Shown here piece after piece: positions 8,553-43,710 of a stretch of 64,000 bases of DNA. The first letter of the stretch is position 1. Every line of letters begins with the position of its first letter. Source of the stretch: a virus; IMG/VR virus record IMGVR_UViG_3300045996_002337, positions 239,971 through 303,970 of that record; one strand, given 5' to 3'. Both the position numbers and the translations under genes were made by a program. Under the pieces are notes generated by a model. That model saw nothing but the letters and a program-made list of their open reading frames with translations. It did not search any database and had not been told where the DNA came from.

Positions 8553-8640
8553 TTGAACGACGGGATTCGAACCCGCACATTGCGCCGGTGATTAGCCGGT
8601 GCTAAGTATACCAATTCCTCACGTTATGCAAACACGTTCA
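8553..8640 (-). tRNA. tRNA-like (T-arm gcgggTTCGAATcccgt; acceptor and anticodon ambiguous)
   Basis: T-arm and D-like gaattggtatac present. A possible 5' acceptor ttgaacg pairs with the 3' cgttcaa only if the gene is 89 nt. Confidence 0.3.
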
Positions 8641-8695
8641 ACAAAATCAACCATGCGCGGCTACCAATTACGCCACGAGTGCATTAAAACAAGAG

Positions 8696-8829
8696 CAACA
8701 AAGGGCGATAACGAAAAGCCTTTCGGCGAGCCGGCTGCCTTACCACTTGGCGACTATCAATTGCTCGATAGGTAGGATTCGAACCTACGTTTAGCTGGAT
8801 AGATAATCATCATCAACGGTTGCTAATTC
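8696..8829. repeat. R2: second copy of the diverged 134-bp direct repeat (T-arm ggattcgaacctac)
   Basis: Aligns with 5469-5602 at about 70% identity. Too short between its T-arm (8771-8790) and the next tRNA (8832) to hold a full tRNA. Confidence 0.6.
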
Positions 8830-8831
8830 TG

Positions 8832-8905
8832 TGGTGCCCCGTGGGTGAATCGAACACCCGACACCGGGTTACAAAGCCAGTGTTATACCACTTAACTAAC
8901 GGGGC
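8832..8905 (-). tRNA. tRNA, anticodon loop tttgtaa (TGT, Thr-like)
   Basis: Acceptor gccccgt/acggggc, D-arm tagttaagtggtataac, T-arm gggtgTTCGATTcaccc, encoded CCA. Terminal C-C mismatch in anticodon stem. Confidence 0.6.
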
Positions 8906-8931
8906 AAAATTTGATATGCAAAAGTGTAACC

Positions 8932-9008
8932 TGGAGTGCGAGGCCGGAATTGAACCGATGCGTCTCTTGTTTTGCAGACAAGCGGAAGGACCACTCTCCC
9001 ACTCGCAC
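8932..9008 (-). tRNA. tRNA-Cys(GCA)
   Basis: Acceptor gtgcgag/ctcgcac, anticodon arm cttgt-ctGCAaa-acaag, T-loop TTCAATT, encoded CCA. Confidence 0.7.
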
Positions 9009-9153
9009 ATAAAAATTGATGATCGTGAAGAGCTTTCCGAGGTGCGTCCCATGTCTATTAGGTCTAAGCATTCCCCTCGGCAATTCGTGGATTCCCCTTG
9101 CAACTTTTCGAGGGTTGCAAGCTCTTCTTGGCGCCGTCACTTACGATCAAACT

Positions 9154-9246
9154 TGGCGGAGACGGTGAGACTCGAACTCACACACCCATTTCTGAGCCTT
9201 CTGCTTTCAAGGCAGCTGCCGCTATGCCGATTCGGCTAACGTCTCC
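9154..9246 (-). tRNA. tRNA-Ser(TGA)
   Basis: Acceptor ggagacg/cgtctcc, anticodon loop ctTGAaa, long variable region, T-arm gtgagTTCGAGTctcac, encoded CCA. Confidence 0.7.
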
Positions 9247-9251
9247 ATATT

Positions 9252-9327
9252 TGGTGGAGGCGACAGGGATCGAACCTGCGACCTGATGCTTGCAAAGCAC
9301 CTGCTCTCCCAGCTGAGCTACACCCCC
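9252..9327 (-). tRNA. tRNA-Ala(TGC), second copy
   Basis: G3:U70, D-arm tagctcagctgggagagc, anticodon arm ggtgc-ttTGCaa-gcatc, T-arm gcaggTTCGATCcctgt, encoded CCA. Confidence 0.8.
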
Positions 9328-9344
9328 GTTATTCATTGAACTCA

Positions 9345-9436
9345 TTTGGATAGGACTCGAACCTACACGAGGACCTCGCGGTTTGCTCTGCTCCTACTAC
9401 GGAGCCGCGTCTACCAATTCCGCCAGCTTCAGAGTT
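9345..9436 (-). tRNA. tRNA-Leu-like, degenerate (Leu-type D-arm tggcggaattggtagacgcg; 3' acceptor does not pair)
   Basis: D-arm identical to bacterial tRNA-Leu. Anticodon region ctccgTAGtagg. T-arm gtaggTTCGAGTcctat. The 5' ctgaagc has no complementary 3' strand. Confidence 0.35.
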
Positions 9437-9584
9437 CGCCGGGGTAATTAAGCCCGACAGCTGCTAGAAGGAGCGACCCTCTTCGCGACATTTGTTTTGC
9501 TCTGAACTCCGGGTTTTCTCCGGCAAAGGTTCCAGCTTCGGCAGTAAAGATACTCTTTCCAACGTCAGGCCAGACAGCATTCAA

Positions 9585-9680
9585 GCTGAGGGGAATCGAA
9601 CCCCCAATCGGATTTTTCTCACATAACGTGTCAGTTAGGTCCTAGTCCTGGACGACTGCTATTTCCCCTTCACGCTGATG
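9585..9680 (-). tRNA. tRNA-like fragment (T-arm gggggTTCGATTcccc only)
   Basis: Strong T-arm. No pairing acceptor found. Confidence 0.25.
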
Positions 9681-9811
9681 TCTGCTAGTTCAGAGCAAAA
9701 CAAACATGTTGAACAGTTTCATCCGTAGGATAACTGAAAACCTACCACCGCGGGTTGCATCCCGTTTCTCTTCGTGTATGGTGACACTAGCTGATGCTAA
9801 TCAGCACGTAT

Positions 9812-9901
9812 TGGTGGATGCTGTCCGAATCGAACGGACCTTAATGCTCAAAGCATTCATAAGCAAGTAACTTATGCCCACTCGTACCAACTACCACATC
9901 C
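9812..9901 (-). tRNA. tRNA, type II (long variable hairpin), anticodon unresolved (loop ttacttg)
   Basis: Acceptor ggatgtg/agcatcc, T-arm gtccgTTCGATTcggac, encoded CCA. Two internal hairpins (cataag/cttatg and aatgc/gcatt). Confidence 0.55.
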
Positions 9902-9906
9902 AATAC

Positions 9907-9982
9907 TGGTGGACCTAGAGGGAATCGAACCCTACCCACAGATCACTTGCAAGGCGATCCGGCAACCCCAATGCTTAAGCCC
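9907..9982 (-). tRNA. tRNA, Ala-like (G3:U70; anticodon loop ctTGCaa)
   Basis: Acceptor gggctta/taggtcc with G3:U70, anticodon stem atcgc/gtgat, T-arm tagggTTCGATTccctc, encoded CCA. Confidence 0.5.
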
Positions 9983-10102
9983 ATGTTGAATCAGGAATTC
10001 TTGTCAGCGTCCCGACTGAATAGGCAAGAAATCGAATCTTGCAATACCGATCCTTGTAGATCGTCGCTGTCCCATTCGCGTTCTATTCAGAACTCCTAAA
10101 CT

Positions 10103-10186
10103 TGGTGGTGTCGGCTGGATTCGAACCAGCGCGTCCTAGGAATCGGGTTTACAATCCGACGGTTTCAGCCACTCACCCACGACACC
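10103..10186 (-). tRNA. tRNA, type II, anticodon loop ttGTAaa (Tyr-like)
   Basis: Acceptor ggtgtcg/cgacacc, long variable arm ttcctaggacgcg, T-arm gctggTTCGAATccagc, encoded CCA. Confidence 0.6.
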
Positions 10187-10207
10187 AATATTCTTTCTAC
10201 CATTTCT

Positions 10208-10310
10208 CTATGCACAGGGATAGGACTTGAACCTATCATAACCCGTTCCGGGAATCGAACCCCTTCCGCGAGGATGCGTCCAAGCGTGTACCCCAGTACT
10301 GACTCTATGC
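10208..10310 (-). tRNA. tRNA-like element with two T-arm motifs, flanked by 12-bp direct repeats (ctctatgcacag)
   Basis: gggaatcgaacccc and ggacttgaacctatc. Direct repeat at 10208-10219 and 10298-10309. Confidence 0.25.
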
Positions 10311-10319
10311 ACAGAAAAA

Positions 10320-10394
10320 TGGTACCTCCTGACGGTATCGAACCGCCGACCCGCTCCGTGTAAAGGAGCCGCTCTACCACTGAGCTAAGGAGGC
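10320..10394 (-). tRNA. tRNA-Val(TAC)
   Basis: D-arm tagctcagtggtagagc, anticodon arm gctcc-ttTACac-ggagc, T-loop TTCGATA, encoded CCA. Confidence 0.8.
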
Positions 10395-10825
10395 AATGTG
10401 GATCGGATATTGTGCCTTCGACAGTTCCTCCATTACAGAGGCAGTCTCATTTGCTTGATACCGATCCAGATTTTACGTTGAATTTACGACGAGTTAGTCC
10501 TTAGCCGATCGTACCTTGCGGTCTCCACGGTCTCTTACTGGTCCGCGAGCTCTGACGAGCATTACAGCGGCTGACAGCAGTGAGTCTTAGTCTCAACGGT
10601 TCGTCAGAACCTCAGAGAACTTTCGTCGCTTTCAACGTAAGTTGTTGGCATTCCAAATTGTTAAAGAGCACCTAATGCATAACAATCTACTGACTTTGCT
10701 TTTTCAGCAAGGACTTAGTTTAAGTCGTCCTAGTCTCCACATCTTTTTAACACAAGTCCTGTGGTTGCTTGTGAGTTATGCACTAAGTTTTAAAGAACGT
10801 TTCGGTTTGTTTAACCGATGAAGCT

Positions 10826-10854
10826 ATTATACAACAGCTTCCGAATTTTGTACA
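10826..10854 (-). promoter_or_regulatory. sigma70-like promoter P1 (TGTACA-N17-TATAAT on minus strand) within a 70-bp direct repeat
   Basis: Minus strand reads TGTACAaaattcggaagctgttgTATAAT (extended -10 TGtATAAT). Points into the tRNA array. Confidence 0.55.
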
Positions 10855-11041
10855 CTGATTTTGCAATCAGCATTGTTGAACTCTACCGGCTTTCACTGTT
10901 CCGATTTCTCGGCTTCAGCTTCCCCAATTTATGGTTTTTCCGATTAGTTCCCCAATCCTTGGCTTTTGCTTCAGGCTCTAAGGGGAACTGTTGTCCAACA
11001 AATTTTTAAAGAACATTTCGGTTTGTTTAACCGATGAAGCT

Positions 11042-14145: not shown

Positions 14146-14291
14146 AGTGCGGCGAGTGCATCCTCGCTGAGGTCAGCAAGCTTAAGCGTCGGAAGAGGCT
14201 TCGCGCCGTCTTCCCTCTTACCAGCCGGCATGTCGATCGTGACTTCAGTTGGTACTGGGAAGGGCTTCAGTGTTAGGTTGATCGTTGCCAT
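14094..14291 (-). CDS. hypothetical small protein
   Basis: 65 aa ORF. Confidence 0.35.
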   Translation of the reverse strand: MATINLTLKPFPVPTEVTIDMPAGKREDGAKPLPTLKLADLSEDALAALCEEFTNAVFEAAGKSL

Positions 14292-18270: not shown

Positions 18271-18632
18271 TCTAGGCGTTCAGAAATTCTTGCACGATTC
18301 AGTTGCTGAGCAGCTTCATCTGGTTCCCAGTCGCACCACCATGATGTGGGCATTTGAGGCAGATCTGGAATCGACATGAATGAAACCCGTCTCCCGCGTC
18401 TGAGACACTCTGAAACGATTTCGTTGTACCGCTTCTGGAGATATCCGAGCCGGGTGTAGAAGAACTTTACATGCCCACCGCCAAGCACATAGGCTGCTGG
18501 AAACTTGGAAGGATCATCACCCCTCGCGTACGAGTTGTAAGCGAGTGTAAAGACACGAGGAAGCTCCCGGTATTCGGCACCCAGATGCTTATCGGTCAAT
18601 TCACTTGGTGGAATGCAGTTGATTCGCGTCAT
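18255..18632 (-). CDS. denV: pyrimidine-dimer DNA glycosylase (T4 endonuclease V family)
   Basis: [28 protein letters not shown]...[30 protein letters not shown] closely parallels T4 DenV ([28 protein letters not shown]...GAGHVTFFYDKLEFLRKR...ECLKRG). Start placed at the internal Met. Confidence 0.8.
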   Translation of the reverse strand: [125 protein letters not shown]

Positions 18633-18640
18633 CGCAATTA

Positions 18641-18717
18641 TGGCCGCCTCGCTGGGGATCGAACCCAGGACCAATCGCTTTTAGAGGGCGCTGCTCTACC
18701 GCTGAGCTACAAGGCGA
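18641..18717 (-). tRNA. tRNA with anticodon-region cctctaaaa (CUA-type, possible amber suppressor); atypical 8-nt T-loop
   Basis: Acceptor cgccttg/cgaggcg, D-arm tagctcagcggtagagc, encoded CCA. Weak anticodon stem. Confidence 0.5.
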
Positions 18718-18723
18718 AAATTT

Positions 18724-18800
18724 GGTGCGTCGTAAGGGATTCGAACCCTTGATCAAGTGTTTTAGAGGCACTAGCTTTAGACCGCTAAGCTAACGACGCG
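18724..18800 (-). tRNA. tRNA with anticodon CTA (amber-reading, suppressor-type)
   Basis: Acceptor gcgtcgt/acgacgc, anticodon region agtgc-cTCTAaa-acact (U33, CUA at 34-36, closing C-A mismatch), T-arm aagggTTCGAATccctt, encoded CCA. Confidence 0.6.
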
Positions 18801-18816
18801 TTGAAGCTATTATACA

Positions 18817-19254
18817 TCAGATCATTAGCGCCGGCTTAAACTTTTTAGCGTCGTTACATACTACATCAAGGTAATCTGTGATGAAGTTACCAGGAATTCT
18901 TGGGTTTTTAATCGCACCCAGCTGGGTGCTTGTTGCCAACGCTTCACCGTCCTCGGCATAGAGGGTGGCCGAGTTCAAAACCAGTTTGTCATCGCGGCAA
19001 ATCGCGGTCACCGAATCGATGAAGTAGGAGCCTTTCTTCTTCGCGCCTTCTACCACTCGCTCTTGGAAGAGCTTCAGACGGAGAGTAGAAGAAACTTCAT
19101 ACCCGCCGTTGTGTTGGCGGATAAAAAGTGACTTCATGTCTACTTCTATTTCAAATGCTGGTGATGCCCCAATTCGAACGAACTCAGTAACGTCTTGGAT
19201 GGGAGTCGTAATGATCCCCAATGCAAGTAGCACATGTGTGAGGAAAGAACCCAT
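18817..19254 (-). CDS. hypothetical protein (N-terminal hydrophobic segment)
   Basis: 145 aa ORF. AGGAG RBS upstream. Confidence 0.5.
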   Translation of the reverse strand: MGSFLTHVLLALGIITTPIQDVTEFVRIGASPAFEIEVDMKSLFIRQHNGGYEVSSTLRLKLFQERVVEGAKKKGSYFIDSVTAICRDDKLVLNSATLYAEDGEALATSTQLGAIKNPRIPGNFITDYLDVVCNDAKKFKPALMI

Positions 19255-19299
19255 CGACGACTCCTGTTAAGCTGATTTCGTATTTACACACATTGGGAG

Positions 19300-19695
19300 C
19301 ACATATGACTGCGGAGCCCGAAGGCTCCGCAGGATGGTTGGTTTACAAGGTGATCAACCCCGCCGTCGAGAGGTTATTAAGCTCTCGACTGCCCTTTCAG
19401 GCAGCCATACGGTAGTTTGCTTCGTTTGCACTTAGCTGTTTTACGCTGATTAGGTCAGTCGTCTCTCCTGCCGCGTATGATCGTCTCCGAAACCCTGTCG
19501 AAACCAGGTCATCCCCATTACAAATTTCTCTGAACTTCCGGGCGCCCAGTTGTTCTTGTTTCCCCAAGCTTTGGTACTGAAAACAGTGTTGGGATGCAGT
19601 AAGAGAAATTTGTGGTGGAGATGGCGGGAATCGAACCCGCGTCCAGAATCCTTCAAGTCACTCCGAATTACGGCAATCAACTGCATTGCTGCAGT
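19300..19695 (-). ncRNA. ssrA: tmRNA (SsrA), circularly permuted two-piece form. Acceptor piece about 19613-19695, intervening about 19517-19612, coding piece about 19300-19516.
   Basis: 3' tRNA-like domain ggacgcgggTTCGATTcccgccatctccACCA matches the E. coli tmRNA 3' end except for two nucleotides. Downstream 5' acceptor ggggatgacctggtttcgacagggtttcgg resembles tmRNA 5' ends and pairs with catctcc giving G3:U70. Tag frame GCA AAC GAA GCA AAC TAC CGT ATG GCT GCC TGA gives ANEANYRMAA (19397-19429). Terminal UUCG hairpin at 19311-19330. Confidence 0.75.
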
Positions 19696-19746
19696 ATGTT
19701 CCTATTATACACTACAATCACTTACCAAAGCTCAAATAAATGTGCT

Positions 19747-20298
19747 TTATTTTACACCGCGGAAGAGAGTCTCTAGAGGATACGTAGCCTCGATTCGCTT
19801 TTTCACCGCTGCGTTCTCGGATTTTGGGATGGTGCCCGCAACGAGGTCTGCCCATTGCTTCCGAGCTTCCTTGCGTTCTTTCTTGAACTCTGCGGCCAGC
19901 TCCGACGGTGTCGCACCTGCTTCCAGCTTTTTCAAGAGCCCCTTCGCTGCCTGAGCAAGTTCTGAGTCCTTGGAGTTGCCGAAGCTGCCTAGGTGGTCAG
20001 CGCTTTTCGCTTCCCATCCAGCCGCGTACTTCTCAAGCTTTTTTTGCCACGCCGTAGATTCGTCTAATGAGAGTAGTTCTTGTAGTAGCATGTATTCTCC
20101 AAATGTTGTTTGTTCGCTGAGCCCTGCTCTGCGCTTCACAATGCCGTTGACGTAGGCCCAAAACCGTGGGCCTTTCTTTTTGAATTTTTTCTTAGCCTGC
20201 TGTTCAGCTTCTTTCCACCAGCCCTCAATGTGCTCAGCGGATTTTCCTGTCTTTTCAGCGTAGCTCTTAACAACTGCGTTTGGCATGTCATCCTCCAA
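19747..20298 (-). CDS. hypothetical Lys/Ala-rich protein
   Basis: 183 aa ORF. Confidence 0.55.
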   Translation of the reverse strand: MEDDMPNAVVKSYAEKTGKSAEHIEGWWKEAEQQAKKKFKKKGPRFWAYVNGIVKRRAGLSEQTTFGEYMLLQELLSLDESTAWQKKLEKYAAGWEAKSADHLGSFGNSKDSELAQAAKGLLKKLEAGATPSELAAEFKKERKEARKQWADLVAGTIPKSENAAVKKRIEATYPLETLFRGVK

Positions 20299-20506
20299 TT
20301 TCTTCTAGCTGCTTTCGAATGCCTTCGAAAACCCGCCGAATATGTTCTTGTTCTTCTGCGGTAAGCGGCAACTCCAGTAACTGGAACTCCTCTAGCCTAC
20401 GCGTTTCAGTAGCTTTTTCAGCCTCTGCTTCGCGAATGCGCTTAGAAACGATTCGCATGGCGTTTCGCAAGCTTAGTTGAGACTGCCTTCTCAAGCTCAC
20501 GCTCAA
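20288..20506 (-). CDS. hypothetical small protein
   Basis: 72 aa ORF. Confidence 0.4.
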   Translation of the reverse strand: MSVSLRRQSQLSLRNAMRIVSKRIREAEAEKATETRRLEEFQLLELPLTAEEQEHIRRVFEGIRKQLEEIGG

Positions 20507-22648: not shown

Positions 22649-23911
22649 TTATAGCATACCCTTATGAAGGCGTACATCCTTTGCTGAGGGACCATGAGAT
22701 GTCAAGCAAACACGAATGCCCATTCGTGCCTCAATGATCGAAGGAAGTTCTGCCGTTAGGATTTCGTGAAGAACATCCTGCATAACCACACGCATCTTCT
22801 CGCCCATTTGGTCAAGACATGTGATCACAATGAGCGGCTGGGCAATCGTGGTGCTGGAGACCTGAGCGTAACTTTTCGCACGATGCATGTCCAACGCGAT
22901 GAAGCGCTGTAGGTTGTCAATATCCAGCGGTGCGTAACGAAGGGTGCCTTGCCATTCGTTGTGAACGTTTGTCTGATCGTTCAGGGGACGATCAGTGATC
23001 ATCTTTCCTTCATGCAATAGAGCCCCATTACCATGACGGGTGGTGTACGCCCGTGTCACGTAGATAGGTTTGACGTTGGTGTAACCACATTCGTTGGCGG
23101 CAGCGATGGAAGACGCTAGACCAGTAACAGAGCGGGTGACGTGCGGAAACTCACCAAAGAACTCGTCAAGCATCAGGCCTTGAGCACCCTCGACGATCAT
23201 GCACTGACGAAAATCGTTGAAGACCTTCGGGTTTTCAAATCGTAGGAAGACGGCCATCCGACGAAGCTCGCCGGCGAGCTTCGTCGTGCTCAGATCAAAC
23301 ATGGAGAAGTAGAGCTGCGCCTTCGCTTGCACATCTGCGCTGGCGTTCGTGAAGCTGGCCATAGAGAGCCCGTACTCGTGAAGCCGCTTCGGCACCCATT
23401 CCTTGCGAATGCGTTGGAGAATGTGCGCAACTTCAAAGCCACTTGACCGTAGCATGTCGAGGGTGAGGAAGTGTCCTGCCTTGTGACGTGTCACGGTCTC
23501 GTTGATACCAAGCCCACATGAACCATGACGGTTGTCGCGTGCGAGCTCGGCAAGAGAATTGATCGCCATGTCGTAGATGGTTGTTACGCGGCAATCACGG
23601 TGGGCGTAGATGTCAGGACGGTGACCGAGCTTCTGAAGAGCGAGCAGCTCCTTCTTCAAGACTGGTGCGTTGAGAATGAAGTTCGACCCGAGGTAGGTGT
23701 TGGCTCCAGCAAATGTACCAGAGCCGACGTGACCGAACACATGACGCTTCTCGCCATCGACCACGGTGTGCCCCGCTTGAGCACCGCCATTGCCACGAGC
23801 AACTAGGGGTGGGACGCCTTGTTCTGTGAACGCGCGGGTGAAGTAGTCCGTTGCCAAACCCTTACCCTCGTCTCCAAACCCGGCCCCAATGATGGCGATT
23901 GCAGTTGTCAT
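22649..23911 (-). CDS. adenylosuccinate synthetase homologue (PurA family; possibly PurZ-type)
   Basis: P-loop IGAGFGDEGKGLATD and GGAQAGHTVV correspond to the PurA GDEGKGK and GGxNAGHT motifs. 420 aa. Confidence 0.75.
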   Translation of the reverse strand: MTTAIAIIGAGFGDEGKGLATDYFTRAFTEQGVPPLVARGNGGAQAGHTVVDGEKRHVFGHVGSGTFAGANTYLGSNFILNAPVLKKELLALQKLGHRPDIYAHRDCRVTTIYDMAINSLAELARDNRHGSCGLGINETVTRHKAGHFLTLDMLRSSGFEVAHILQRIRKEWVPKRLHEYGLSMASFTNASADVQAKAQLYFSMFDLSTTKLAGELRRMAVFLRFENPKVFNDFRQCMIVEGAQGLMLDEFFGEFPHVTRSVTGLASSIAAANECGYTNVKPIYVTRAYTTRHGNGALLHEGKMITDRPLNDQTNVHNEWQGTLRYAPLDIDNLQRFIALDMHRAKSYAQVSSTTIAQPLIVITCLDQMGEKMRVVMQDVLHEILTAELPSIIEARMGIRVCLTSHGPSAKDVRLHKGML

Positions 23912-28988: not shown

Positions 28989-29230
28989 TTAATGCGAAGT
29001 GGCGCATTAAGCAGTGCAGGTCTATTACGATTGAGAATCTTCTTTGCATCCTCCATCGCTGATTCGACGCTGTTGAAGCGCTGCGCCGAATCCATTTCCT
29101 CAATGCTCCATGTCCACTTCGTTTGATCCTTACTCTGGATCACCACTTCAACTTGCGGCACTCGGAACGTGATCATTTGCGCTTTGCCTCCCGCTTGATA
29201 GCTGCCAGTGCAGATGGGTGCACCGCCCAT
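28973..29230 (-). CDS. hypothetical protein
   Basis: 85 aa ORF. Confidence 0.4.
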   Translation of the reverse strand: MGGAPICTGSYQAGGKAQMITFRVPQVEVVIQSKDQTKWTWSIEEMDSAQRFNSVESAMEDAKKILNRNRPALLNAPLRIKWHVQ

Positions 29231-30243
29231 TTAACGCGTTCAATGTCCAGTGGATCTACATCACGCCACTTTGGGTGACCTGACGCTTGAAGTTGATCAA
29301 TGTTCCGGGTGATGCAGGTAACGAGATTGCCAATTTCCTTCTGGTACTGATTCTTGTACGCGAAGGTAGCAAGCACGTTGTTCACCTTGTACGTCGAGAT
29401 TGGTGTACCTTGCCAAGGATAGGTTCCTGTAGGGAGCATTGCCTTTGTGTAGAAGCCAAACTTATCGAGAGCGGGGTGTTGGATAGGAATCAACTTCACA
29501 CCGTTTGCACCAGACAGAACGCGAATCGGTTGGCCAGCAACGATAAACTCCACATCCGCAGCACCGGTTTGGACGGCCTTCAGACCCGCAGCCTGTGATA
29601 GGTTACCTTCAACGGTTTCCCACTGAATGCCAGTTTGCTGCTTGATCAGCTGAACAGTCACCCAAGTTCCAGAACCTTCTGGACCTTCAACCACGCGCTT
29701 ACCAGCGAGGTCGGCCAAGGAATTGATAGGAGAACCATTTGCAACAATTGCGTGCACCTCCACTGAAAAGAATGGAAAAACAGCAACTACGCGCGACATC
29801 ATCTTTGGATCAATCTTCTGCTGATATGCGAGGGCGTCCTCTTGCGCGATACCAAACTGTGAGTTAGGATCAGTGTAGATCTTGTTGATGTTGTCGATTG
29901 AGCCGTCACTGATGACATTACGAAGCGGGTAGTCATCAGTAGAACAGGCTTTTACGATGTCCTCAGCCATGGGCCAATTCGTACCGGTTTTTTGACCCGA
30001 GGCAATGCCGGCGCCGGGAAGCTTGCCACCTGCGTTCAGGACCGGCATTTGCGGCTGAGGTTGCGGCTGAGGTTGCGGCTCGACGTTAGGCGCCACCATA
30101 ATGGCTGGTGCTACCGGTGCAGTCGCGACGATTGCAGCCGTGTCAGCTTGCGTTTTTGGCATGAACTTGTAAGCGACGAACCCAAGAAGGGCCACAACGC
30201 TTCCAACAATGATTGCCTTGGGAAGAGTCTTTAGCTTTGCCAT
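29173..30243 (-). CDS. ABC transporter substrate-binding protein (NitT/TauT- or PhnD-like)
   Basis: Signal anchor, PQPQPQPQ linker, SBP-like core (SLADLAGKRVVEGPEGSGTWVT...). Adjacent to the ABC ATPase. Confidence 0.65.
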   Translation of the reverse strand: MAKLKTLPKAIIVGSVVALLGFVAYKFMPKTQADTAAIVATAPVAPAIMVAPNVEPQPQPQPQPQMPVLNAGGKLPGAGIASGQKTGTNWPMAEDIVKACSTDDYPLRNVISDGSIDNINKIYTDPNSQFGIAQEDALAYQQKIDPKMMSRVVAVFPFFSVEVHAIVANGSPINSLADLAGKRVVEGPEGSGTWVTVQLIKQQTGIQWETVEGNLSQAAGLKAVQTGAADVEFIVAGQPIRVLSGANGVKLIPIQHPALDKFGFYTKAMLPTGTYPWQGTPISTYKVNNVLATFAYKNQYQKEIGNLVTCITRNIDQLQASGHPKWRDVDPLDIERVKWAVHPSALAAIKREAKRK

Positions 30244-30255
30244 ATTTCTCCTGTT

Positions 30256-31041
30256 TTACAAAGTTTTGAAAAGTTCTTTCAGCTCATGCACCGTCGGCCA
30301 GAACTGTGGGTGATTTTCAACATCAGGGTGCCAAGCAAGGCCTCGTTCGATGAGGTCAAACTGCTTGACAACCGTCGCACCAGGTTTTCCCTCTTCACGA
30401 CCCATCACCCAAATGGTGTCTGCAATTTGAACTGCAGATTCAAGATCGTGCGTGGTGAAGACAGTCGTGTTCAGCTCATCGACCAGATTCACTTCATTGA
30501 TCAGCGCGCAGACCTTATCCTTCGCGACCACGTCAAGACCTGAGAACGGTTCGTCCATCAGCAGGAAGTGCTTTGAGCCAAGCATCTGTTGAATGATCGC
30601 GATACGCTGGCGTTGACCACCAGACAGCTGGAGCGGGTATTTCTTTGCGTGTTGCTCAAGTCCAAAGCGGCTAAGCAGTTCATGAATTCGATCGTTGTCC
30701 TTCGACACCAGCTGCAGATTCCCCTCGATCGTCCGATGTTGAAGCAGCGGGTAGTTCTGCTGAACAACACCAACAACTCCAGCCGGAACAGGGTCCTTCG
30801 AGTCATGAATGCGCACCATACCAGCTGAGGGCCGCTGCATGCCAGCAATGCAGCGAAAGAGCTGGGTCTTACCGCAGCCCGATGGGCCGAGGAGGGCGAT
30901 GCACTGGCCCTGATTCATACCAGGACGAACGATGTTGTCGACCTGCAGATTAATGTCGCGAAGGATTTGTTTATCTCCGTACGACAGATTGAGACCTTCA
31001 ACGGTGAGCAGGCGCTCTTTGCGTTCGTATTGTTGTTTCAC
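30256..31041 (-). CDS. ABC transporter ATP-binding protein
   Basis: Walker A GPSGCGKT, signature LSGGQRQR, Walker B LLMDEP. Confidence 0.85.
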   Translation of the reverse strand: MKQQYERKERLLTVEGLNLSYGDKQILRDINLQVDNIVRPGMNQGQCIALLGPSGCGKTQLFRCIAGMQRPSAGMVRIHDSKDPVPAGVVGVVQQNYPLLQHRTIEGNLQLVSKDNDRIHELLSRFGLEQHAKKYPLQLSGGQRQRIAIIQQMLGSKHFLLMDEPFSGLDVVAKDKVCALINEVNLVDELNTTVFTTHDLESAVQIADTIWVMGREEGKPGATVVKQFDLIERGLAWHPDVENHPQFWPTVHELKELFKTL

Positions 31042-31556
31042 TTAACACCTCGTTGTTCCAAGTACACGACAAGCTTTTGCACCGTGTTGTGCTCCTCGAG
31101 GAAGAGGTATGGAGTGCAGGGGATGGCAATGTCAAATTCGAATGCCAGATCTTCCACCAACTCACCATACGCGAAATAGTCACCTTCGAAGCCGGGCTTC
31201 ATGTACTCGGTAAGATCTTCATCGGGCTTCACGTCGCTGAGGCCGAGGCTGATCGCCACAGTTTCTGCAACGCGGTCAGTCAGAGACCGATCCTCATTCT
31301 CCACAGCTCCCATGTTCTGCATCAGGATGTAGCGAACAAGCGCCTGAATCACAACGCCCTTTTCTTGCGCCAGCTTTTGAAGCCGCTCGTGTTCCTGAGT
31401 CGTCACGTAGATCGGTGGCAGCTGCGCCAAACCAAGAGCGGCGCCAATTTGTTCTTCAATCTCTTTCGACGCCCGTGTGGGGATAAGTCCCTTGAGCTTG
31501 TGAACTTCTTCAATGAGAGTGTCAAGCCGTTCGCCGATGGTAAGTTTCTTAGTCAT
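31038..31556 (-). CDS. hypothetical protein
   Basis: 172 aa ORF, 4-nt overlap. Confidence 0.5.
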   Translation of the reverse strand: MTKKLTIGERLDTLIEEVHKLKGLIPTRASKEIEEQIGAALGLAQLPPIYVTTQEHERLQKLAQEKGVVIQALVRYILMQNMGAVENEDRSLTDRVAETVAISLGLSDVKPDEDLTEYMKPGFEGDYFAYGELVEDLAFEFDIAIPCTPYLFLEEHNTVQKLVVYLEQRGVK

Positions 31557-31592
31557 GATGAATTATAACCTACGTTGACACTAGCTTGTTGA

Positions 31593-32405
31593 TTACTTGC
31601 CAAGAACGACAGGGACCTGGCCAATAACGCAGGTGGATTTCGAGCACGCTTCACTGAACCGCTTGATCTGCTCAAGCTGAATGAACTGCTCGGGCGAGAG
31701 ACCGATCGCATTGCGATATGCGTTGTCAGCATCTGCCTTGGCAACCTGCTCCTTCTTCCGCTGAATTTCAGCAGCTTCTGCTTCAATGAGGGTCTTCTTG
31801 CGTTGCTGTTGCGCGGCCGTTTCATTCATCTGCGCGAGGACGTTCGCGTTAGGCTTTGCACGCCCGAGCGATACGCCGATGATTTTGAGCGGCAGTTTCG
31901 ATTCGATGACGAGCTTCTGCAGAGCCAACGTAACTTCAGAGTCGACGTCATTTGCTGCAGCGACATCTGACATCATCTGGGTCATGGTCTTCTTCTTGAC
32001 AGCTTCACGAACGATGGACATGTACTGTCGCTCGACGTTCGCCGCAAACCAATCTTGTGTACCGAAGTTCTTCACGAGAGAGACCGCATCTGTGAACTGA
32101 TATTGAATAGTGGATTCAAAGTCGAGGAGAATGTTGTCAGCCGATGACAGATCGTCGAACTGCACCTGCACGCCCTGCGGCGTCATGCGAACTGCCGTGA
32201 GGGACGAAGTTCGGAAAAGCAGAATGCGGCCGTCTTTCAGAACTTCGTCACGAACGCCAGAGTGGCCGAAGAAGTAGGGTTTGTCGACGATGACACCATG
32301 CTGACCAGGTTCAACGACCTCGGTGTGCATGAAGAAGATCCACGTAAACACGAAGCCGATGATGGCAAGAGCTGCGACCGACAGAGCCGCGATAACGTAT
32401 TTCAT
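31593..32405 (-). CDS. SPFH/band-7 domain membrane protein
   Basis: N-terminal TM helix. Prohibitin/HflC-like core and coiled-coil tail. Confidence 0.6.
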   Translation of the reverse strand: MKYVIAALSVAALAIIGFVFTWIFFMHTEVVEPGQHGVIVDKPYFFGHSGVRDEVLKDGRILLFRTSSLTAVRMTPQGVQVQFDDLSSADNILLDFESTIQYQFTDAVSLVKNFGTQDWFAANVERQYMSIVREAVKKKTMTQMMSDVAAANDVDSEVTLALQKLVIESKLPLKIIGVSLGRAKPNANVLAQMNETAAQQQRKKTLIEAEAAEIQRKKEQVAKADADNAYRNAIGLSPEQFIQLEQIKRFSEACSKSTCVIGQVPVVLGK

Positions 32406-32415
32406 TTATTTTCTT

Positions 32416-32715
32416 TCAGAGTTTAGGTTTGAACGTGTACATGGCAGAGCCGCTTTCATTAAAGGCGGGCTTATCAAAAGTCACCTTCCAACCATAGTTC
32501 CCATACAGCAACTCGAAATCAAGCCACTTTGGATTGAGATACTCAAAGTTGCCGAGCGAGTGCATTTTTTCAGCGACGCGCTCCTTCACTGACGTCAGGG
32601 TCAAACTGAACGAAGACGTACCGTTGAAGTTTTCGTTGATGAGCTCATTGACCGCGTCGATGACGAAATCGGGGATTGGGCGCGAGGCCTCTTGGGGCGT
32701 GATTGGTTTAGTCAT
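32416..32715 (-). CDS. hypothetical protein
   Basis: 99 aa ORF. Confidence 0.5.
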   Translation of the reverse strand: MTKPITPQEASRPIPDFVIDAVNELINENFNGTSSFSLTLTSVKERVAEKMHSLGNFEYLNPKWLDFELLYGNYGWKVTFDKPAFNESGSAMYTFKPKL

Positions 32716-32748
32716 AATGCCATTATAACCTGTTCGGGTGAAAAAGGT

Positions 32749-33111
32749 TCACCAACGAATAACAATTGCGTAGTGCTGATAGAGAGGGCCAGGTTGAAAG
32801 CCATCTACGTCATCAACCGCCAACCCGCGTGGAACATACGCGTTACCGAGCTTTTCAAGGGTAGCGCCGTAGCCGAGTGCCTTCAGCTTCTCAATTAACA
32901 CCTTCATGAATGGTGACACTTCGACGCTATCATATGGCCCAGCATCAATGCTGATCTTGTCATAGGGCATTCCAACTACGTCTGAAAGCACGAGTAACGC
33001 AGCACCGGATTTTGCTGCTGCCTTGATAGGTGCGTCCAGTTTTTCAAGAACGTTCTGTACCGCCGCCTCAGAACGTTCAACAAGGCCACGTGCCTCTTTT
33101 GCGGTGATCAC
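32749..33111 (-). CDS. hypothetical protein
   Basis: 120 aa ORF. Confidence 0.5.
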   Translation of the reverse strand: MITAKEARGLVERSEAAVQNVLEKLDAPIKAAAKSGAALLVLSDVVGMPYDKISIDAGPYDSVEVSPFMKVLIEKLKALGYGATLEKLGNAYVPRGLAVDDVDGFQPGPLYQHYAIVIRW

Positions 33112-33896
33112 CGGTCACTCCTTCCAAGTTCGCTGTATGGGCATACAAGAGCTCGAAGGAAGTTCAATGCCATGTCCTGTACGATGCCGTAGAACAGAAT
33201 GGTGAGCTGAATAGCAAACACCGCGCTGAGGTTGAAGTATTTGGCTTGAACAGCCAACAGCGCACCGATTCCACCGTCACTGCGAACATATGATTCCACC
33301 ATCACGATCAGCGTCCAACCGATTGCGGCGTTCTGGCGGAGAAGGTCAAGCATGACGTGAAGACGGCCGCGAACACCCATTTCCCACGTGATCTGCCAGC
33401 CGCTGAGACCCAAGCTACGTGCGTAGTCGATGCTTTCCAGCGGGATCGATTTGATTTCGTCGACCGTCGACCGCATTAGGAATACCGTCATGCCGAAAGT
33501 GAGCATCGCCAGCTTGAGCATTTGACCATCACCACCCACCCAGAGGGTAAAGAGGAAGGTGAGACCAGCAAAACCGAGGAAGCGCAGCGAGGCAATGAAC
33601 GTTCCAGTCGGTTTGAAAATGTCGGCAGTGGTGAGATAGGCGACGCCAAAGGAAATTAGAGCTGACAGGATTAGAGCCTCCCAGATCACCACTACCGATT
33701 TGAAGAGCTCAAGCAGAAGACCGTTGTTGAGGGCCAACGAGTTCCATGCTTGCGCGATTGAAGAAGGCGAGGGAATGCCTGTGCCATTTGGCAACAGAGT
33801 CCAGATGATCGCCATAATGGCAAGCTGTGTGAGCGCCAGAAACTTCACGCTTAGCTTGCGACCTTGAGAAAAGGGGACGAACATGGATTTGATCAT
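33108..33896 (-). CDS. ABC transporter permease
   Basis: Six hydrophobic segments. Conserved cytoplasmic loop DYARSLGLSGWQITWE (EAA-type). Confidence 0.75.
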   Translation of the reverse strand: MIKSMFVPFSQGRKLSVKFLALTQLAIMAIIWTLLPNGTGIPSPSSIAQAWNSLALNNGLLLELFKSVVVIWEALILSALISFGVAYLTTADIFKPTGTFIASLRFLGFAGLTFLFTLWVGGDGQMLKLAMLTFGMTVFLMRSTVDEIKSIPLESIDYARSLGLSGWQITWEMGVRGRLHVMLDLLRQNAAIGWTLIVMVESYVRSDGGIGALLAVQAKYFNLSAVFAIQLTILFYGIVQDMALNFLRALVCPYSELGRSDR

Positions 33897-35031: not shown

Positions 35032-36729
35032 TTACTTCGTGGAGAAGAGGACGATTTCAACGCGACGGTTCTGTGCATCCGAACCAATAGGCTGGGTGTC
35101 GCCATAACCACGGGTCACGATGCGCTCTGTCGGGAAGTTCGAGCCGGCGTTGGTCATGAGGAACTGCTTCACTGCTTCAGCACGGGCCTTCGACAGAATC
35201 ATGTTCGACGTAGGGTTACCCTTGGAGTCGGTGTGACCATTGATCTGGACCGAGAGACTCGACACCGCGATGTTGTCGAGAAGGTCATTCAGAACGGCGA
35301 TGGAAGCGGGCTTGATCGTGGACTTACCGCTGTCGAACTCAACCGTGTACGACTTGTTGGCAACGACCTCAGCCTTTTGACCACCGTACGTAGGCACCGC
35401 AGCCGGAGCAACCGTGGTCGAGCCTGCCAGCAGCGCTTGAACATACGTCGTGTCGACCACATCTTCGTAGGGAATCAGCTTGTCGAGCATGTCAGGAAAG
35501 TACTTTACCGCGATGTTGCCATAGACGGTGTAGACCTTCTTGTACAGGTTATCGTTGCCATTCAGGCCAAAGAGAAACGCGTTGTCAGCGAGGCCGTTGG
35601 TCGTCGAACCACCCAAGAAGATCGGGTTGCCAGTCTTGTCGTTCTCAACGACACCACGGTGGTACTTCGCCCAGTATGCGGCGTCCTGTTCACCATAGAC
35701 TTTGGCTTGAACTGCACCAGACTTGAGCAGTGCGTCAGAGTTGGAGCGAACTGCTTCACCACCTTCGAACGCTGCAGCCAAGAGGGCCTTCACGACTTCA
35801 GGGTTCTTCTGCATCCACTGCTTGTTGCCAATGATGGTCGTCGGCATTTGCCATGCGTATTCCTTCGTCGAGGCGAGGACTTTGAGGTTACCACGTTCAC
35901 GTGCCAGCTTCACATCGCCTGGGGTCCAGGTTGCAGAACCGTTCACGCAAACCTTTTGACTCTGTTTGGTAGCGGTGTTCGTGCGCGTTTCGCATGCACC
36001 TGCCATGAACTTTTCATCAGCTTCCGTGAAGGAGCCAGTGCCAGCAAAGTTCATGCCATTCGGGTCATACGTCTTCGGGTCAGAGTTCACGACGATGCCG
36101 TTATCCGCGGCGTACTTGATGCAGATGTTGATGTCACCATCACCGAGGTAACCGGCAATCAGCGAGCCCTTTGCGGTCGCGTTCTTGTCGATGATGCACT
36201 TGTCTTCACCACGGCTGTAGCCGAGGGCACCAACAACGGCAACCGACTGATTGAACGGAGCGAGTGCGTCATTTGCACCCTTGACGAAAGCAGGGTAACC
36301 GTCACCCATGATGATCACGAAGTGCGAGCCCTGCGAGTTGTCTTTTGCGAAGGTGGCGAGGTCAGCAATGAGCTTCGCGTAGTCGTCTTCACGCTTGATG
36401 TTGACCTTCAGGCCGCGCTTGGCCATCAGGGAACCAGATGCGGTCGTTGCATCGCCGTTCGCGAAGTGCAGACCGGCGGTGCCGTTCCACGGAATCGTCT
36501 TGATGCGGATCGTGTCGCTCGAAGAAACGGTGGTTGCAGCGATCGTGGTCGTTGCGGCAGGAGTGGCTGCAGCAGCCGTCGGCAGATCGATCTTGTCAGG
36601 CACGGAGGCCTCAATCGTTGCCTTCGGCTTGAAGTAGCCAGCGTTCATTGCGATGTGGGCGCCGTAGCCCAGGATACCGACAGCCGCAGCGATGAGAATC
36701 GCCTTCGGTGCCGCTTTCAGCTTTGCCAT
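35032..36729 (-). CDS. OmpA-family peptidoglycan-binding protein with large periplasmic N-domain
   Basis: C-terminal NGHTDSKGNPTSNMILSKARAEAVKQFL...TRGYGDTQP...NRRVEIVLF is the OmpA/MotB PG-binding motif. N-terminus MAKLKAAPKAILIAAAVGILG resembles that of the SBP gene at 29173-30243. Confidence 0.7.
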   Translation of the reverse strand: MAKLKAAPKAILIAAAVGILGYGAHIAMNAGYFKPKATIEASVPDKIDLPTAAAATPAATTTIAATTVSSSDTIRIKTIPWNGTAGLHFANGDATTASGSLMAKRGLKVNIKREDDYAKLIADLATFAKDNSQGSHFVIIMGDGYPAFVKGANDALAPFNQSVAVVGALGYSRGEDKCIIDKNATAKGSLIAGYLGDGDINICIKYAADNGIVVNSDPKTYDPNGMNFAGTGSFTEADEKFMAGACETRTNTATKQSQKVCVNGSATWTPGDVKLARERGNLKVLASTKEYAWQMPTTIIGNKQWMQKNPEVVKALLAAAFEGGEAVRSNSDALLKSGAVQAKVYGEQDAAYWAKYHRGVVENDKTGNPIFLGGSTTNGLADNAFLFGLNGNDNLYKKVYTVYGNIAVKYFPDMLDKLIPYEDVVDTTYVQALLAGSTTVAPAAVPTYGGQKAEVVANKSYTVEFDSGKSTIKPASIAVLNDLLDNIAVSSLSVQINGHTDSKGNPTSNMILSKARAEAVKQFLMTNAGSNFPTERIVTRGYGDTQPIGSDAQNRRVEIVLFSTK

Positions 36730-38560: not shown

Positions 38561-38779
38561 TCACGCCGATGGCGGAATGTGAACTTTGTTGGTGGCGATA
38601 TTCAGGTTGATGCGTCGTTCATGGACACTGATCGCCCACTGTCGAACCTCCTTCAGCTCCGCTTCCCAGATCGCTTCCTCTGGGCTGCTCTTTGCAGGTT
38701 TGTTGTCATGCAAAAGGCAGAAGAGCTTGTTGATGGCCCGCAGTGCGGCATCAGTTTTCTCCCACGTATCGTAGTTCAC
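38561..38779 (-). CDS. hypothetical protein
   Basis: 72 aa ORF, 4-nt overlap with the RNA ligase gene. Confidence 0.4.
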   Translation of the reverse strand: MNYDTWEKTDAALRAINKLFCLLHDNKPAKSSPEEAIWEAELKEVRQWAISVHERRINLNIATNKVHIPPSA

Positions 38780-41659: not shown

Positions 41660-42475
41660 TTAGACCTCCACGAATTTTGGGCCATACTGATTAAACTCAG
41701 ATGCATGTTCATTGTTGTACCCACTAGGGTTGCACACGACACGTGTGCCCCACATCTCAGTGTCAATCGAATCATGAGTATGGCCGTGAATCCATAGATC
41801 GATTTTTCCACCTGCAAGGAGGGCGTCACAGTTCGACGCAAAACCGCCGTTGATTTCATTACCAAAACGGGGGTGACACAGCCGATATGATGGCATGTGA
41901 TGCGAGATGACCACTGTCCTACCTTCAAATGGCTTCTCAAGGTGCTCCACGATCTTCGCCTTCTGCTTGCGGTGAATCTCGGCCATGTCAGGCACGGTGA
42001 ACCGGCGAGGCGGATCGTTCAAATGTGATTGATCGATCTTGATGACGTAGAAGTCACGAAGAGATGAACCGACCATCCCGCGTTCCGCAATCGATTGACC
42101 GCCATCAGCCCACAGCGTGCTGAAGATGAATCGCGCGTTCTCAAGCTCGAGGTAGCCAACGTCGCAGGTCGCGAACTCAGTCTTCTCGCTTACGCCCAAC
42201 TCGAGGCTGAATTTCGTGGACCACTCCGTCATGTTGTGGCCGTAAAATTCGTGGTTGCCGGGAATGTAGATGACCTTCAGAAACCGTTTCTCAATCTCGC
42301 GGAGAAAGGCAATGAGTTGATCGAACTTGGAGCTGATATCACCCGCCAAAACCAAAACGCTCTCAGCATCGCGCTCGTCGGGGGCAACGAATGTTTTCAC
42401 CAGGAATTCAGCAGTTTGCCCGGTCCATTGCTCAAGATGCAGGTCGCTCGCGACACGAATGTATTTTGGTTTCAT
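41660..42475 (-). CDS. calcineurin-like metallophosphoesterase
   Basis: MPP motifs DLH, GDIS, GNHE, GHTH. Confidence 0.7.
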   Translation of the reverse strand: MKPKYIRVASDLHLEQWTGQTAEFLVKTFVAPDERDAESVLVLAGDISSKFDQLIAFLREIEKRFLKVIYIPGNHEFYGHNMTEWSTKFSLELGVSEKTEFATCDVGYLELENARFIFSTLWADGGQSIAERGMVGSSLRDFYVIKIDQSHLNDPPRRFTVPDMAEIHRKQKAKIVEHLEKPFEGRTVVISHHMPSYRLCHPRFGNEINGGFASNCDALLAGGKIDLWIHGHTHDSIDTEMWGTRVVCNPSGYNNEHASEFNQYGPKFVEV

Positions 42476-43521: not shown

Positions 43522-43710
43522 TTAAGCTCTCACTGCGATAAAAATGTTGTAAATGGTGACGATCAGCGTGGTAACCGCAACGGCTTCAAGAAACTCCATC
43601 GTGGCCCTGGCACCAATGTGCATGTTGTCAATTGCTGGATTTCTATTGCCCTGGAAAAAGATAATCAGCCATGACGCAAAGAAGATACCGATGATGACTA
43701 ATGCAGACAT
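43522..43710 (-). CDS. small membrane protein
   Basis: 62 aa, hydrophobic. Confidence 0.35.
   Translation of the reverse strand: MSALVIIGIFFASWLIIFFQGNRNPAIDNMHIGARATMEFLEAVAVTTLIVTIYNIFIAVRA

Follow-up and report, generated by a model that had tools for sequence, protein, structure and literature searches.

A circularly permuted beta-type tmRNA gene on a jumbo-phage-like replicon and its relatives in other phages

The minus strand of a 64,000-nucleotide (nt) stretch of viral DNA (positions 239,971 to 303,970 of IMG/VR record IMGVR_UViG_3300045996_002337; this whole stretch is called the window hereafter) carries a circularly permuted, 'beta'-type gene for transfer-messenger RNA (tmRNA; gene, ssrA) with the tag ANEANYRMAA, on a phage-like replicon. 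Judged from its sequence, it is very likely to be a genuine and probably functional ssrA that is carried, and inherited vertically, by a lineage of very large phages. ARAGORN called a permuted tmRNA gene at 19306-19705 on the minus strand, with the tag ANEANYRMAA followed by a stop. Both Rfam covariance models that match the locus lie above their curated cut-offs, in the kind of search by which a first-pass annotation, made from the letters of the DNA, had proposed to check its own suggestion of a permuted tmRNA: RF04321 (tmRNA_permuted) scored 129 bits (E, 6.5e-25; gathering score, 47) over the full model length of 1-213, and RF01850 (beta_tmRNA) scored 110.9 bits (E, 6.9e-33; gathering score, 84) over model positions 1-331. 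Within clan CL00001, beta_tmRNA was the sole survivor of the competition at the locus, the alpha (RF01849) and cyano (RF01851) models not being the best match; the tool drops lower-scoring overlapping clan members, so that the alpha and cyano scores themselves are not displayed, and RF04321, the bit score of which exceeds that of RF01850, belongs to no Rfam clan. The Rfam scan of the locus returned no credible family besides the tmRNA models, and no riboswitch. Taken together, ARAGORN and the two Rfam models give a match far beyond chance.

The flanking open reading frames (ORFs) end at 19254 and begin at 19747, leaving a 492-bp gap that holds the gene. The span of 19300-19695 given in the first-pass annotation is the right locus, but falls slightly short of the ~19306-19709 that the gene occupies when its -10 element is included. 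In ARAGORN, RF04321, and the covariation described below, the acceptor half lies upstream of the coding half, the permuted order that had been claimed, and the tRNA-like domain forms across the intervening segment. All of the minus-strand elements could be read directly, in the order proposed, within 19100-19900. In the order of transcription, the parts are:

19704..19709, minus strand: perfect -10 hexamer TATAAT, read from the sequence, ~7 nt upstream of the predicted start at ~19697; tentative
19613..19697, minus strand: acceptor piece (3' half of a standard tmRNA), from the RF04321 and RF01850 alignments and covariation; 5' end predicted
19695-19680, minus strand: 5' hairpin of the acceptor piece, recovered by the minimum-free-energy (MFE) fold
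19675-19671, minus strand: distal strand of helix P2, UGCCG, in the acceptor piece
19650-19644, minus strand: P2a strand GAUUCUG, in the acceptor piece
19640-19624, minus strand: T-arm, in the acceptor piece, recovered by the MFE fold
19623-19617, minus strand: acceptor 3' strand CAUCUCC, pairing with GGGGAUG at 19516-19510
19616, minus strand: discriminator A, in the acceptor piece
19615-19613, minus strand: encoded CCA, the acceptor half ending ...GGACGCGGGTTCGATTCCCGCCATCTCCACCA
19517..19612, minus strand: spacer of 96 nt between the acceptor and coding halves, predicted to be excised
19612-19602 with 19531-19521, minus strand: 11-bp helix closing the spacer, CAAAUUUCUCU with AGAGAAAUUUG; covariation at 11/11 pairs
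19520-19517, minus strand: unpaired UAAU at the end of the spacer, directly 5' of G1
19306..19516, minus strand: coding piece (5' half of a standard tmRNA), beginning GGGGATGACCTGGTTTCGACAGGG... at 19516, from ARAGORN, Rfam, covariation, and the MFE fold
19516-19510, minus strand: acceptor 5' strand GGGGAUG, in the coding piece
following GGGGAUG, minus strand: D-loop analogue GGUUUCGAC, in the coding piece
19497-19491, minus strand: P2a strand CAGGGUU, in the coding piece
19473-19469, minus strand: distal P2 strand CGGCA, in the coding piece
19446..19469, minus strand: pseudoknot PK1; stem 1, (A)GG 19469-19467 with CC(U) 19454-19452; stem 2, CUGA 19458-19455 with UCAG 19449-19446
19397..19429, minus strand: tag frame ANEANYRMAA; resume codon GCA at 19429, stop codon UGA at 19399-19397
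19367..19387, minus strand: extra hairpin CGAGAG-CUUAAUAAC-CUCUCG, from the MFE fold; only in the window's gene, absent from the relatives compared
19333..19361, minus strand: probable pseudoknot PK2; stem 1, GGGGU 19361-19357 with ACCUU 19351-19347; stem 2, GAU 19355-19353 with AUC 19335-19333
19309..19332, minus strand: terminal GC-rich hairpin CUGCGGAGCC-UUCG-GGCUCCGCAG, then UCA, from the RF01850 model and the MFE fold

The tRNA-Ala-like domain combines an acceptor stem of 7 bp, G3:U70 included, with a T-arm whose loop reads GTTCRANNC, a discriminator A, and a 3' CCA. Its alanine-identity G3:U70, formed, as the first-pass annotation had read it, by GGGGAUG and CAUCUCC, is located at 19514:19619, and the spacer, put there at about 96 nt, measures exactly 96 nt. 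The coding piece runs through PK1, the tag frame, the stop-codon hairpin, the extra hairpin, PK2, and the terminal hairpin. PK1 ends 16 nt before the resume codon, which is preceded immediately by UAAGU (U-5, A-4) and is a GCA without a start codon; the frame proposed earlier (GCA AAC GAA GCA AAC TAC CGT ATG GCT GCC TGA) is found intact at 19429-19397, agrees with the ARAGORN call, and closes with hydrophobic-Ala-Ala and a stop, the UGA sitting atop a 7-bp hairpin (19405-19388) in the MFE fold. The beta-type anatomy is likewise present, apart from the mid-P2 misfit described below: the spacer is closed by a helix and has a GAU-like end, the coding piece contains PK1 and the probable PK2, and a GC hairpin, the UUCG hairpin anticipated at first reading, stands at the 3' terminus. 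In every permuted gene compared, the two ends of the spacer are complementary, and YGAU or UAAU comes next. This layout agrees with that described for two-piece tmRNAs, in which a coding piece with PK1, tag, and PK2 is accompanied by a separate acceptor piece (PMC3985003).

The pairings were examined in homologues taken from viral contigs that share either the T-arm 25-mer or the 5' 24-mer, from two GenBank phages, and from relatives of this phage. Alignment A1 comprises 25 phage sequences aligned with MAFFT after removal of the spacer interiors, and hence was not fitted to any structure. In A1, the proposed pairs were formed in 87.7% of cells, as compared with 40-47% when the 3' partners were slid; the covariation score was 0.532 against ~0.1 in the control; and 0/500 shuffles reached any of the four key measures. 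The acceptor stem, which joins the two halves, was 100% paired in every sequence with covariation at positions 4-6, so that the failure of the 5'-like segment to pair with the acceptor strand, which the first-pass annotation had named as a possible outcome, did not occur; G3:U70 was invariant (25/25 homologues). Pairing was also high in the T-arm (99%), P2a (98%), distal P2 (92%), and the 11-bp spacer-closing helix (89.5%, with double changes at 11/11 pairs), followed by stems 1 and 2 of PK1 (80% and 75%, each pair showing double changes). Between the window and its closest relative, for example, PK1 changed in a compensatory manner from AGG/CCU to ACG/CGU and from CUGA/UCAG to CCGA/UCGG. In alignment A2, stem 1 of PK2 was 96% paired, compared with 31-55% when slid, and pairing in stem 2 reached 65%, its register shifting among sequences and its strands changing in a compensatory way (GAU/AUC, GAC/GUC, ACC/GGU, and AGCC/GGUU). 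The terminal hairpin stems of six relatives (L060, L063, L062, L058, L066, and L077) differ in sequence yet stay complementary. The MFE of the predicted 392-nt precursor (19697-19306) was -142.9 kcal/mol (z = -4.28), a stability attained by 0/100 shuffles, and the fold recovered the 5' hairpin, T-arm, acceptor stem, spacer helix, and terminal hairpin. Gene order, covarying pairings, an intact tag frame, and conservation in the lineage are thus computational observations.

From the gene order, the covariation, the helix-closed spacer, and precedent, we infer that the mature RNA consists of two pieces. A two-piece tmRNA works in Caulobacter, where the processing is thought to involve RNase P and a 3' enzyme (PMC3985003). 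We infer the transcription start, processing, alanylation, SmpB-dependent tagging, proteolysis, and fitness benefit as follows. A precursor of ~390 nt would be transcribed from the -10 element at 19709-19704 and would fold so that the acceptor 3' strand of the upstream half pairs with GGGGAUG of the downstream half, with the 96-nt spacer extruded as a helix-closed loop, much like a paired tRNA leader and trailer. Host RNase P would cut 5' of G19516, and host 3'-processing enzymes would trim as far as the encoded CCA at 19613, so that the spacer is freed and there remain an acceptor piece of ~85 nt and a coding piece of ~211 nt, joined by the acceptor stem (P1) and helix P2. The complex would be charged by host alanyl-tRNA synthetase (AlaRS) via G3:U70 and brought to stalled ribosomes by host SmpB and EF-Tu; translation would then resume at GCA 19429 and add ANEANYRMAA, termination at UGA would free the ribosome, and the tagged protein would be marked for host proteases. 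The likely benefit to the phage would be a continued supply of ribosomes during the destruction of host mRNAs and the re-tooling of translation. Huge phages carry SmpB as well as tmRNAs, and for the tmRNAs a role in keeping ribosomes free has been proposed (PMC7162821), and the same free-ribosome role has been proposed for phage Melnitz (PMC9004378).

Several observations weigh against a functional ssrA of this kind. When 18500-20400 was scanned with sigma-70 and terminator consensus patterns, neither a promoter nor a terminator was called for the gene, and no canonical -35 was found near the lone TATAAT; relatives carry TATAAT or TACAAT at the same place (L063 and L067), and L058 has TTTACA-17-TACAAT. 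The 14-mer around TATAAT is repeated in the window no more often than chance would predict, which left no phage promoter family to define. No U-tract accompanies the terminal hairpin, which was not called in the terminator scan; the hairpin is likely to mark the end of the transcript or to serve as a protective 3' structure. Mid-P2 misfits the RF01850 consensus, with non-canonical pairs flagged, and this region may instead form a local hairpin; stem 2 of PK2 in the window's gene is just 3 bp long. Neither tblastn with an approximate E. coli SmpB (best E, 3.4) nor Pfam on the flanking ORFs, together a weak test, revealed an SmpB-like gene in the 64-kb window; a host partner must therefore be assumed. 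Finally, Arg at -4 and Met at -3 are unusual for a tag (YRMAA, compared with the canonical YALAA), and recognition of this tag by proteases is presumed.

The divergence of the tag also bears on the idea that the RNA is mainly a competitor or regulator of host trans-translation, which titrates SmpB, AlaRS, or EF-Tu, or re-tags host proteins with a phage-specific degron and so redirects proteolysis. The Arg at -4 recurs in related phages (FRLVA in L062 and FRVAA in L067), a tag-less tmRNA-like RNA of mycobacteriophage DS6A inhibits the cell's own tmRNA in E. coli (cited in PMC11915505), and Buchholz et al. speculate on selective tagging of host proteins (PMC9004378). We nevertheless regard such a role as improbable, because the tag frame, the resume context (U-5, A-4), PK1, and the stop are intact and are conserved, with covariation, across the lineage, none of which a pure decoy would need, and the tag still ends with hydrophobic-Ala-Ala as functional tags do.

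The lineage itself was delineated through the NAMPT gene, located 1.5 kb from the tmRNA in the window. A search of IMG/VR with NAMPT retrieved 29 viral contigs of up to 455 kb, the NAMPT relatives sharing 58-74% amino acid identity. Seven distinct relatives have a beta-type permuted tmRNA within 1.5-6 kb of NAMPT (L058, L060, L062, L063, L066, L067, and L077), all of them exceeding the RF01850 threshold; the call in an eighth contig, L078, is identical to that in L062. The composite identity to the window's gene is 88% in L063, the closest relative (tag, ANEANFLMAA), 86% in L062, 82% in L060, and 74% in L058, and in neighbor-joining (NJ) bootstraps the window grouped with L063 and L060 in 179/200 replicates and, with L062 added, in 169/200. 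Tags of this clade end in [LIVM][AV]A. Occurrence of orthologous permuted tmRNAs beside the same NAMPT gene indicates that the gene has been inherited within the phage lineage. One further relative, L074, has a one-piece gene instead (RF00023, 179 bits), ~0.8 kb downstream of its NAMPT. In L077 (17175-17508), the tag reported by ARAGORN, DDRKSSKTKYLQTMLTSKDCA, is a mis-call of the frame; the actual frame, GCA AAC GAT GCT AAC TTC GAA GGA CTG CGC CTA GCG GCG TAA, encodes ANDANFEGLRLAA. Long spacers of 147 and 165+ nt were noted in L047 (within 10543-10989, minus strand) and L058 (within 6497-6973). They hold an ATG-initiated small ORF, that of L047 (MALIIVGIVIVAFAFWLYEYHKNYNMKYLKHNKEQGKVVL) having the look of a small membrane peptide, and a protein gene may thus be nested in the excised spacer.

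This pattern of inheritance is difficult to reconcile with a passenger, that is, with cellular DNA captured (for example, around an integration site) and decaying with no selected function. It is true that tmRNA genes are frequent integration sites and that phages often carry fragments of them (PMC9004378), and several of the viral contigs with the T-arm 25-mer have no complete tmRNA (L010, L011, L013, and others). In the window, by contrast, both halves are complete and score above curated thresholds, and at least seven related phage contigs preserve the structure by compensatory changes. A recent capture is further opposed by the exact 24-nt 5' end, which was found in 19 viral contigs, all with permuted genes, and was absent from the 185,579 species genomes of bacteria and archaea that were searched. 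The flanking ORFs gave no family match, integrase included. The probability of a passenger is accordingly very low.

The phage origin of the replicon, asserted in the first-pass annotation, is supported by the gene content: a jumbo-phage-like genome is well supported, and is not proven from the window alone. The window encodes NAMPT, an NMNAT-Nudix protein, a PurA/PurZ-like enzyme, a T4-type clamp loader, a DNA-polymerase fragment family, and several families known only from PHROG. Megablast of 24 kb found no GenBank phage similar in DNA, blastn of the locus gave T-arm matches alone, and the proteins are less than 42% identical to those of any phage isolate, the best isolates for the clamp loader being jumbo phages, namely RsoM2USA of Ralstonia (41.8%) and the PA5oct group of Pseudomonas (40%). 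It could be argued that the window is instead a segment of a cellular chromosome or megaplasmid and the ssrA the organism's own, since no virion genes (capsid, terminase, or tail) were found in the 64-kb window, large plasmids can hold similar translation gene sets (PMC7162821), and an ABC importer, an OmpA-domain protein, and an L,D-transpeptidase look cellular. The clamp loader, RNA ligase, NAMPT with NMNAT-Nudix, and PHROG-only families speak against such an origin, as do the best matches to jumbo phages, the dense one-strand array of ~26 tRNAs, the 29 IMG/VR viral contigs that share the NAMPT neighborhood, and a tmRNA 5' end shared by nothing cellular; only a very small chance is left to it. 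It is the complete, covarying tag module together with the conservation in the lineage that makes all three of these alternatives less probable than an ssrA working for the phage.

Cellular counterparts were sought with a relaxed 5'-end pattern, which gave at least 120 cellular loci, a sample, that were classified with ARAGORN. Among the matches listed, 92 calls are standard genes, including those of all Burkholderia, Paraburkholderia, Undibacterium, and Oxalobacteraceae genomes, and permuted cellular genes occur in Azonexus, Dechloromonas, Accumulibacter, Thauera, Azoarcus, and related metagenome-assembled genomes (Rhodocyclales), with tags such as ANDEQFAIAA and ANDERFALAA, and in one Advenella. 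The window's gene shares the architecture of the Rhodocyclales genes, but does not belong to their cellular betaproteobacterial lineage, because its replicon is phage-like, it falls outside the Rhodocyclales clade (bootstrap, 199/200, NJ), and its 5' 24-mer is absent from the species genomes. The deep NJ nodes are weak (monophyly of all permuted genes, 0/200; Rhodocyclales with the window's clade, 25/200), and therefore no direction of transfer between phage and cell is concluded. The permuted gene of Advenella mandrilli (L181; NZ_JAENGP010000015.1, 946-1281) has the tag ANDESYALAA, which is also the tag of the viral contig L044, and lies in an ordinary chromosomal setting, with DUF1415, OmpA-family proteins, a HAD hydrolase, a methyltransferase, and gyrA as neighbors. 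It groups weakly with a phage cluster rather than with Rhodocyclales (65/200, NJ), and Advenella may represent another cellular lineage that has the permuted form, or else a case of phage-cell exchange.

Permuted ssrA is known from clades of Alphaproteobacteria, Betaproteobacteria, and Cyanobacteria (PMC11915505, PMC9004378), and the first-pass annotation had taken the arrangement in the window as a hint to the host range. That hint is not borne out in this form: the subtype is beta, not alpha or cyano, the same type occurs in cultured Stenotrophomonas and Xanthomonas phages, and the window's gene clusters with phage relatives and has the virus-restricted 5' end described above. Since the Stenotrophomonas and Xanthomonas hosts lie outside the three clades with two-piece ssrA, the permuted form is a weak host marker; phage Melnitz, too, has an alpha-type gene mismatched to the subtype of its host (PMC9004378). 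The arrangement suggests a Pseudomonadota host at most, and caution is advisable wherever a permuted gene form is used to assign a host. A broader proposal, which we consider unlikely on present sequence comparisons, is that the beta-type permuted ssrA is primarily a phage-borne family exchanged with cells and not a cellular invention occasionally borrowed. Consistent with it, the phage copies in the sample gathered are far more diverse than the cellular ones; they occur in unrelated phage families, some with hosts from one-piece-tmRNA lineages; the Rhodocyclales genes form one tight clade amid long phage branches; and Advenella groups weakly with a phage cluster. If this proposal were true, some bacteria would have obtained their two-piece rescue RNA through replacement by a phage gene, and the phage-versus-cell history of the beta-type gene is a modest lead.

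In the window, two tRNA genes with the anticodon CUA lie downstream of the tmRNA at a distance of 0.5 kb (minus strand, 18641-18716 and 18723-18799). ARAGORN labels tRNAs with this anticodon 'Pyl'; they are amber-suppressor-like. The order NAMPT, tmRNA, tRNA(CUA) is common to the window and three relatives, L060 (tRNA at 14149-14224), L067 (7255-7331), and L077 (17820-17894), in which tRNA(CUA) are the sole tRNA-like genes within 13-21 kb; these tRNAs have diverged too far between contigs for orthology to be called. As a stop, TAG is rare, ending 2/95 of the minus-strand ORFs of at least 100 amino acids in the window. Recoding of TAG in the window was considered and rejected, as reading TAG as sense barely lengthens or merges ORFs and no in-frame TAG recoding is visible; stop counts over both strands of the relatives were too noisy to be informative. 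Suppressor tRNAs raise SsrA tagging (Ueda 2002, as reported in PMC3985003), and the tmRNA and tRNA(CUA) might act as a unit in which the tmRNA would clear ribosomes that run off messages after suppressor read-through. Such a functional link is conceivable, and the recurrent pairing is a modest lead.

In total, ~28 tRNAs were found in the window, namely the two tRNA(CUA) and the dense array of ~26 on the minus strand at 1197-10394. Unusual members of the array are tRNA-Ile(UAU), tRNA-Ser(ACU), and a 72-nt 'Leu(UAA)' without a long variable arm (7360-7431); two tRNA-like matches were given by Rfam only, one at 6216-6284 and one at 2258-2362, the 105 nt of which may include an insertion or intron. 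An RNA-repair-like set with a DNA ligase is encoded on the minus strand (38776-40137, 41660-42475, 47171-48193, and 43710-45011), consisting of an RNA ligase (PF09414 with the PHA02142 OB fold), a calcineurin-like phosphoesterase, an RlaP-family nucleotidyltransferase (PF10127), and the ATP-dependent DNA ligase. The repair set, the tRNAs, and the tmRNA together suggest that the phage protects or replaces host translation RNAs. The ORF at 22649-23911 (minus strand) is adenylosuccinate-synthetase-like, with a PurZ-type annotation (phrog_1211; E, 4e-51) and the Pfam family Adenylsucc_synt, and its matches in PDB are to ordinary PurA and weak (E, ~1e-14); if it were PurZ, the DNA made by the phage might contain 2-aminoadenine. 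What appears to be a complete ABC importer is encoded at 29173-33896 (minus strand) by a substrate-binding protein (NMT1_3, 29173-30243), an ATPase (30256-31041), a lipoprotein (31593-32405), and a permease (BPD_transp_1, 33108-33896). Cell-envelope genes are found elsewhere in the window: an L,D-transpeptidase (4349-5296), an OmpA-domain protein (35032-36729), and a GH16 protein (57102-58331).

Two-piece tmRNAs of phages are already established, Buchholz et al. 2022 having reported 133 unique tmRNAs, 53 of them two-piece, in 402 phages (PMC9004378). The 2025 tmRNA database, the source of the RF04321 model, has 11,946 permuted sequences and holds 79 phage sequences, and the supplementary text of its paper has nothing on phage forms (PMC11915505). 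The gene in the window is a further example, from a previously unsequenced phage, and its main value is one of annotation: an RNA gene is placed in an otherwise 'empty' 492-bp gap of an uncharacterized jumbo-type phage, and the same gene is overlooked or mis-annotated in deposited genomes, e.g., that of Xanthomonas phage JGB6. It also adds a conserved, lineage-specific case in which large phages bring a rescue RNA alongside tRNAs and RNA-repair enzymes. The remaining interest lies in the phage diversity of the beta-type gene, its presence in phages of one-piece-tmRNA hosts, and the NAMPT-tmRNA-tRNA(CUA) order.

A beta-type two-piece tmRNA of the Rhodocyclales was reportedly described by Sharkady and Williams in 2004 (cited in PMC9004378 and PMC3985003), and we compared the window's gene with those of Azonexus (L096), Dechloromonas (L135), Accumulibacter (L127), Thauera (L180), and Azoarcus (L197). 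These genes resemble it in the succession of acceptor piece, spacer (closed by a helix, with GAU at its end), coding piece, and terminal GC hairpin, in the tRNA-like domain, in the positions of PK1 and PK2, and in tags of 10 residues that start with AN(D/E) and end with hydrophobic-Ala-Ala. The window's gene differs in being phage-borne, with a composite identity of 66-74%; in its spacer of 96 nt, as against 4-43 nt; in its fully encoded CCA, the final A of which is missing in most Rhodocyclales genes; in the extra hairpin after the tag and the misfit of mid-P2 to the model; and in the tag end, YRMAA as compared with FA[ILV]AA.

The same beta-type permuted architecture is found in other virulent or large phages, namely the Stenotrophomonas Menderavirus phages (Marzo, Moby, and IME-SM1), Alcaligenes phage QDWS595, Xanthomonas phage JGB6, and many IMG/VR contigs. 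As in the window, the gene usually lies in or beside tRNA clusters and has G3:U70 and the spacer helix; these genes are 55-75% identical to that of the window, and their carriers belong to families unrelated to its phage (Schitoviridae, Menderavirus). The Menderavirus gene is labeled simply 'tmRNA' in Marzo. Unannotated permuted tmRNAs are present in Alcaligenes phage vB_Af_QDWS595 (L001; OK149171.2, 1453-1829; tag, ANDNVYAAAA) and JGB6 (L002; OQ436456.1, 1452-1860; tag, VTANDSYFEVALAA), with RF01850 scores of 94-95 bits, and VAANDDSYTVRIAA is a further tag among the phage genes of this group. In JGB6, a 'hypothetical protein' coding sequence (locus 1383-1547) lies on the strand opposite to the gene and covers some of its 5' part; the tmRNA of QDWS595 is followed directly, at 1797-1873, by a tRNA whose anticodon is UUA (ochre-suppressor-like).

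The one-piece gene of L074 occupies the same NAMPT neighborhood as the window's gene, in standard order, and one-piece tmRNAs are also carried by mycobacteriophages. Melnitz, a phage of OM43, and the pelagimyophages resemble the window's phage in encoding a circularly permuted ssrA; there it is a recurring, non-defining feature of the group with a subtype unlike that of the host (PMC9004378). Their genes are alpha-type and marine, some being fused to a glutamine riboswitch, whereas that of the window is beta-type with no riboswitch found. The permuted gene of Caulobacter crescentus yields two RNAs that perform trans-translation (Keiler, Shapiro & Williams 2000, as cited in PMC3985003); this gene is alpha-type, cellular, and distant in sequence from that of the window.

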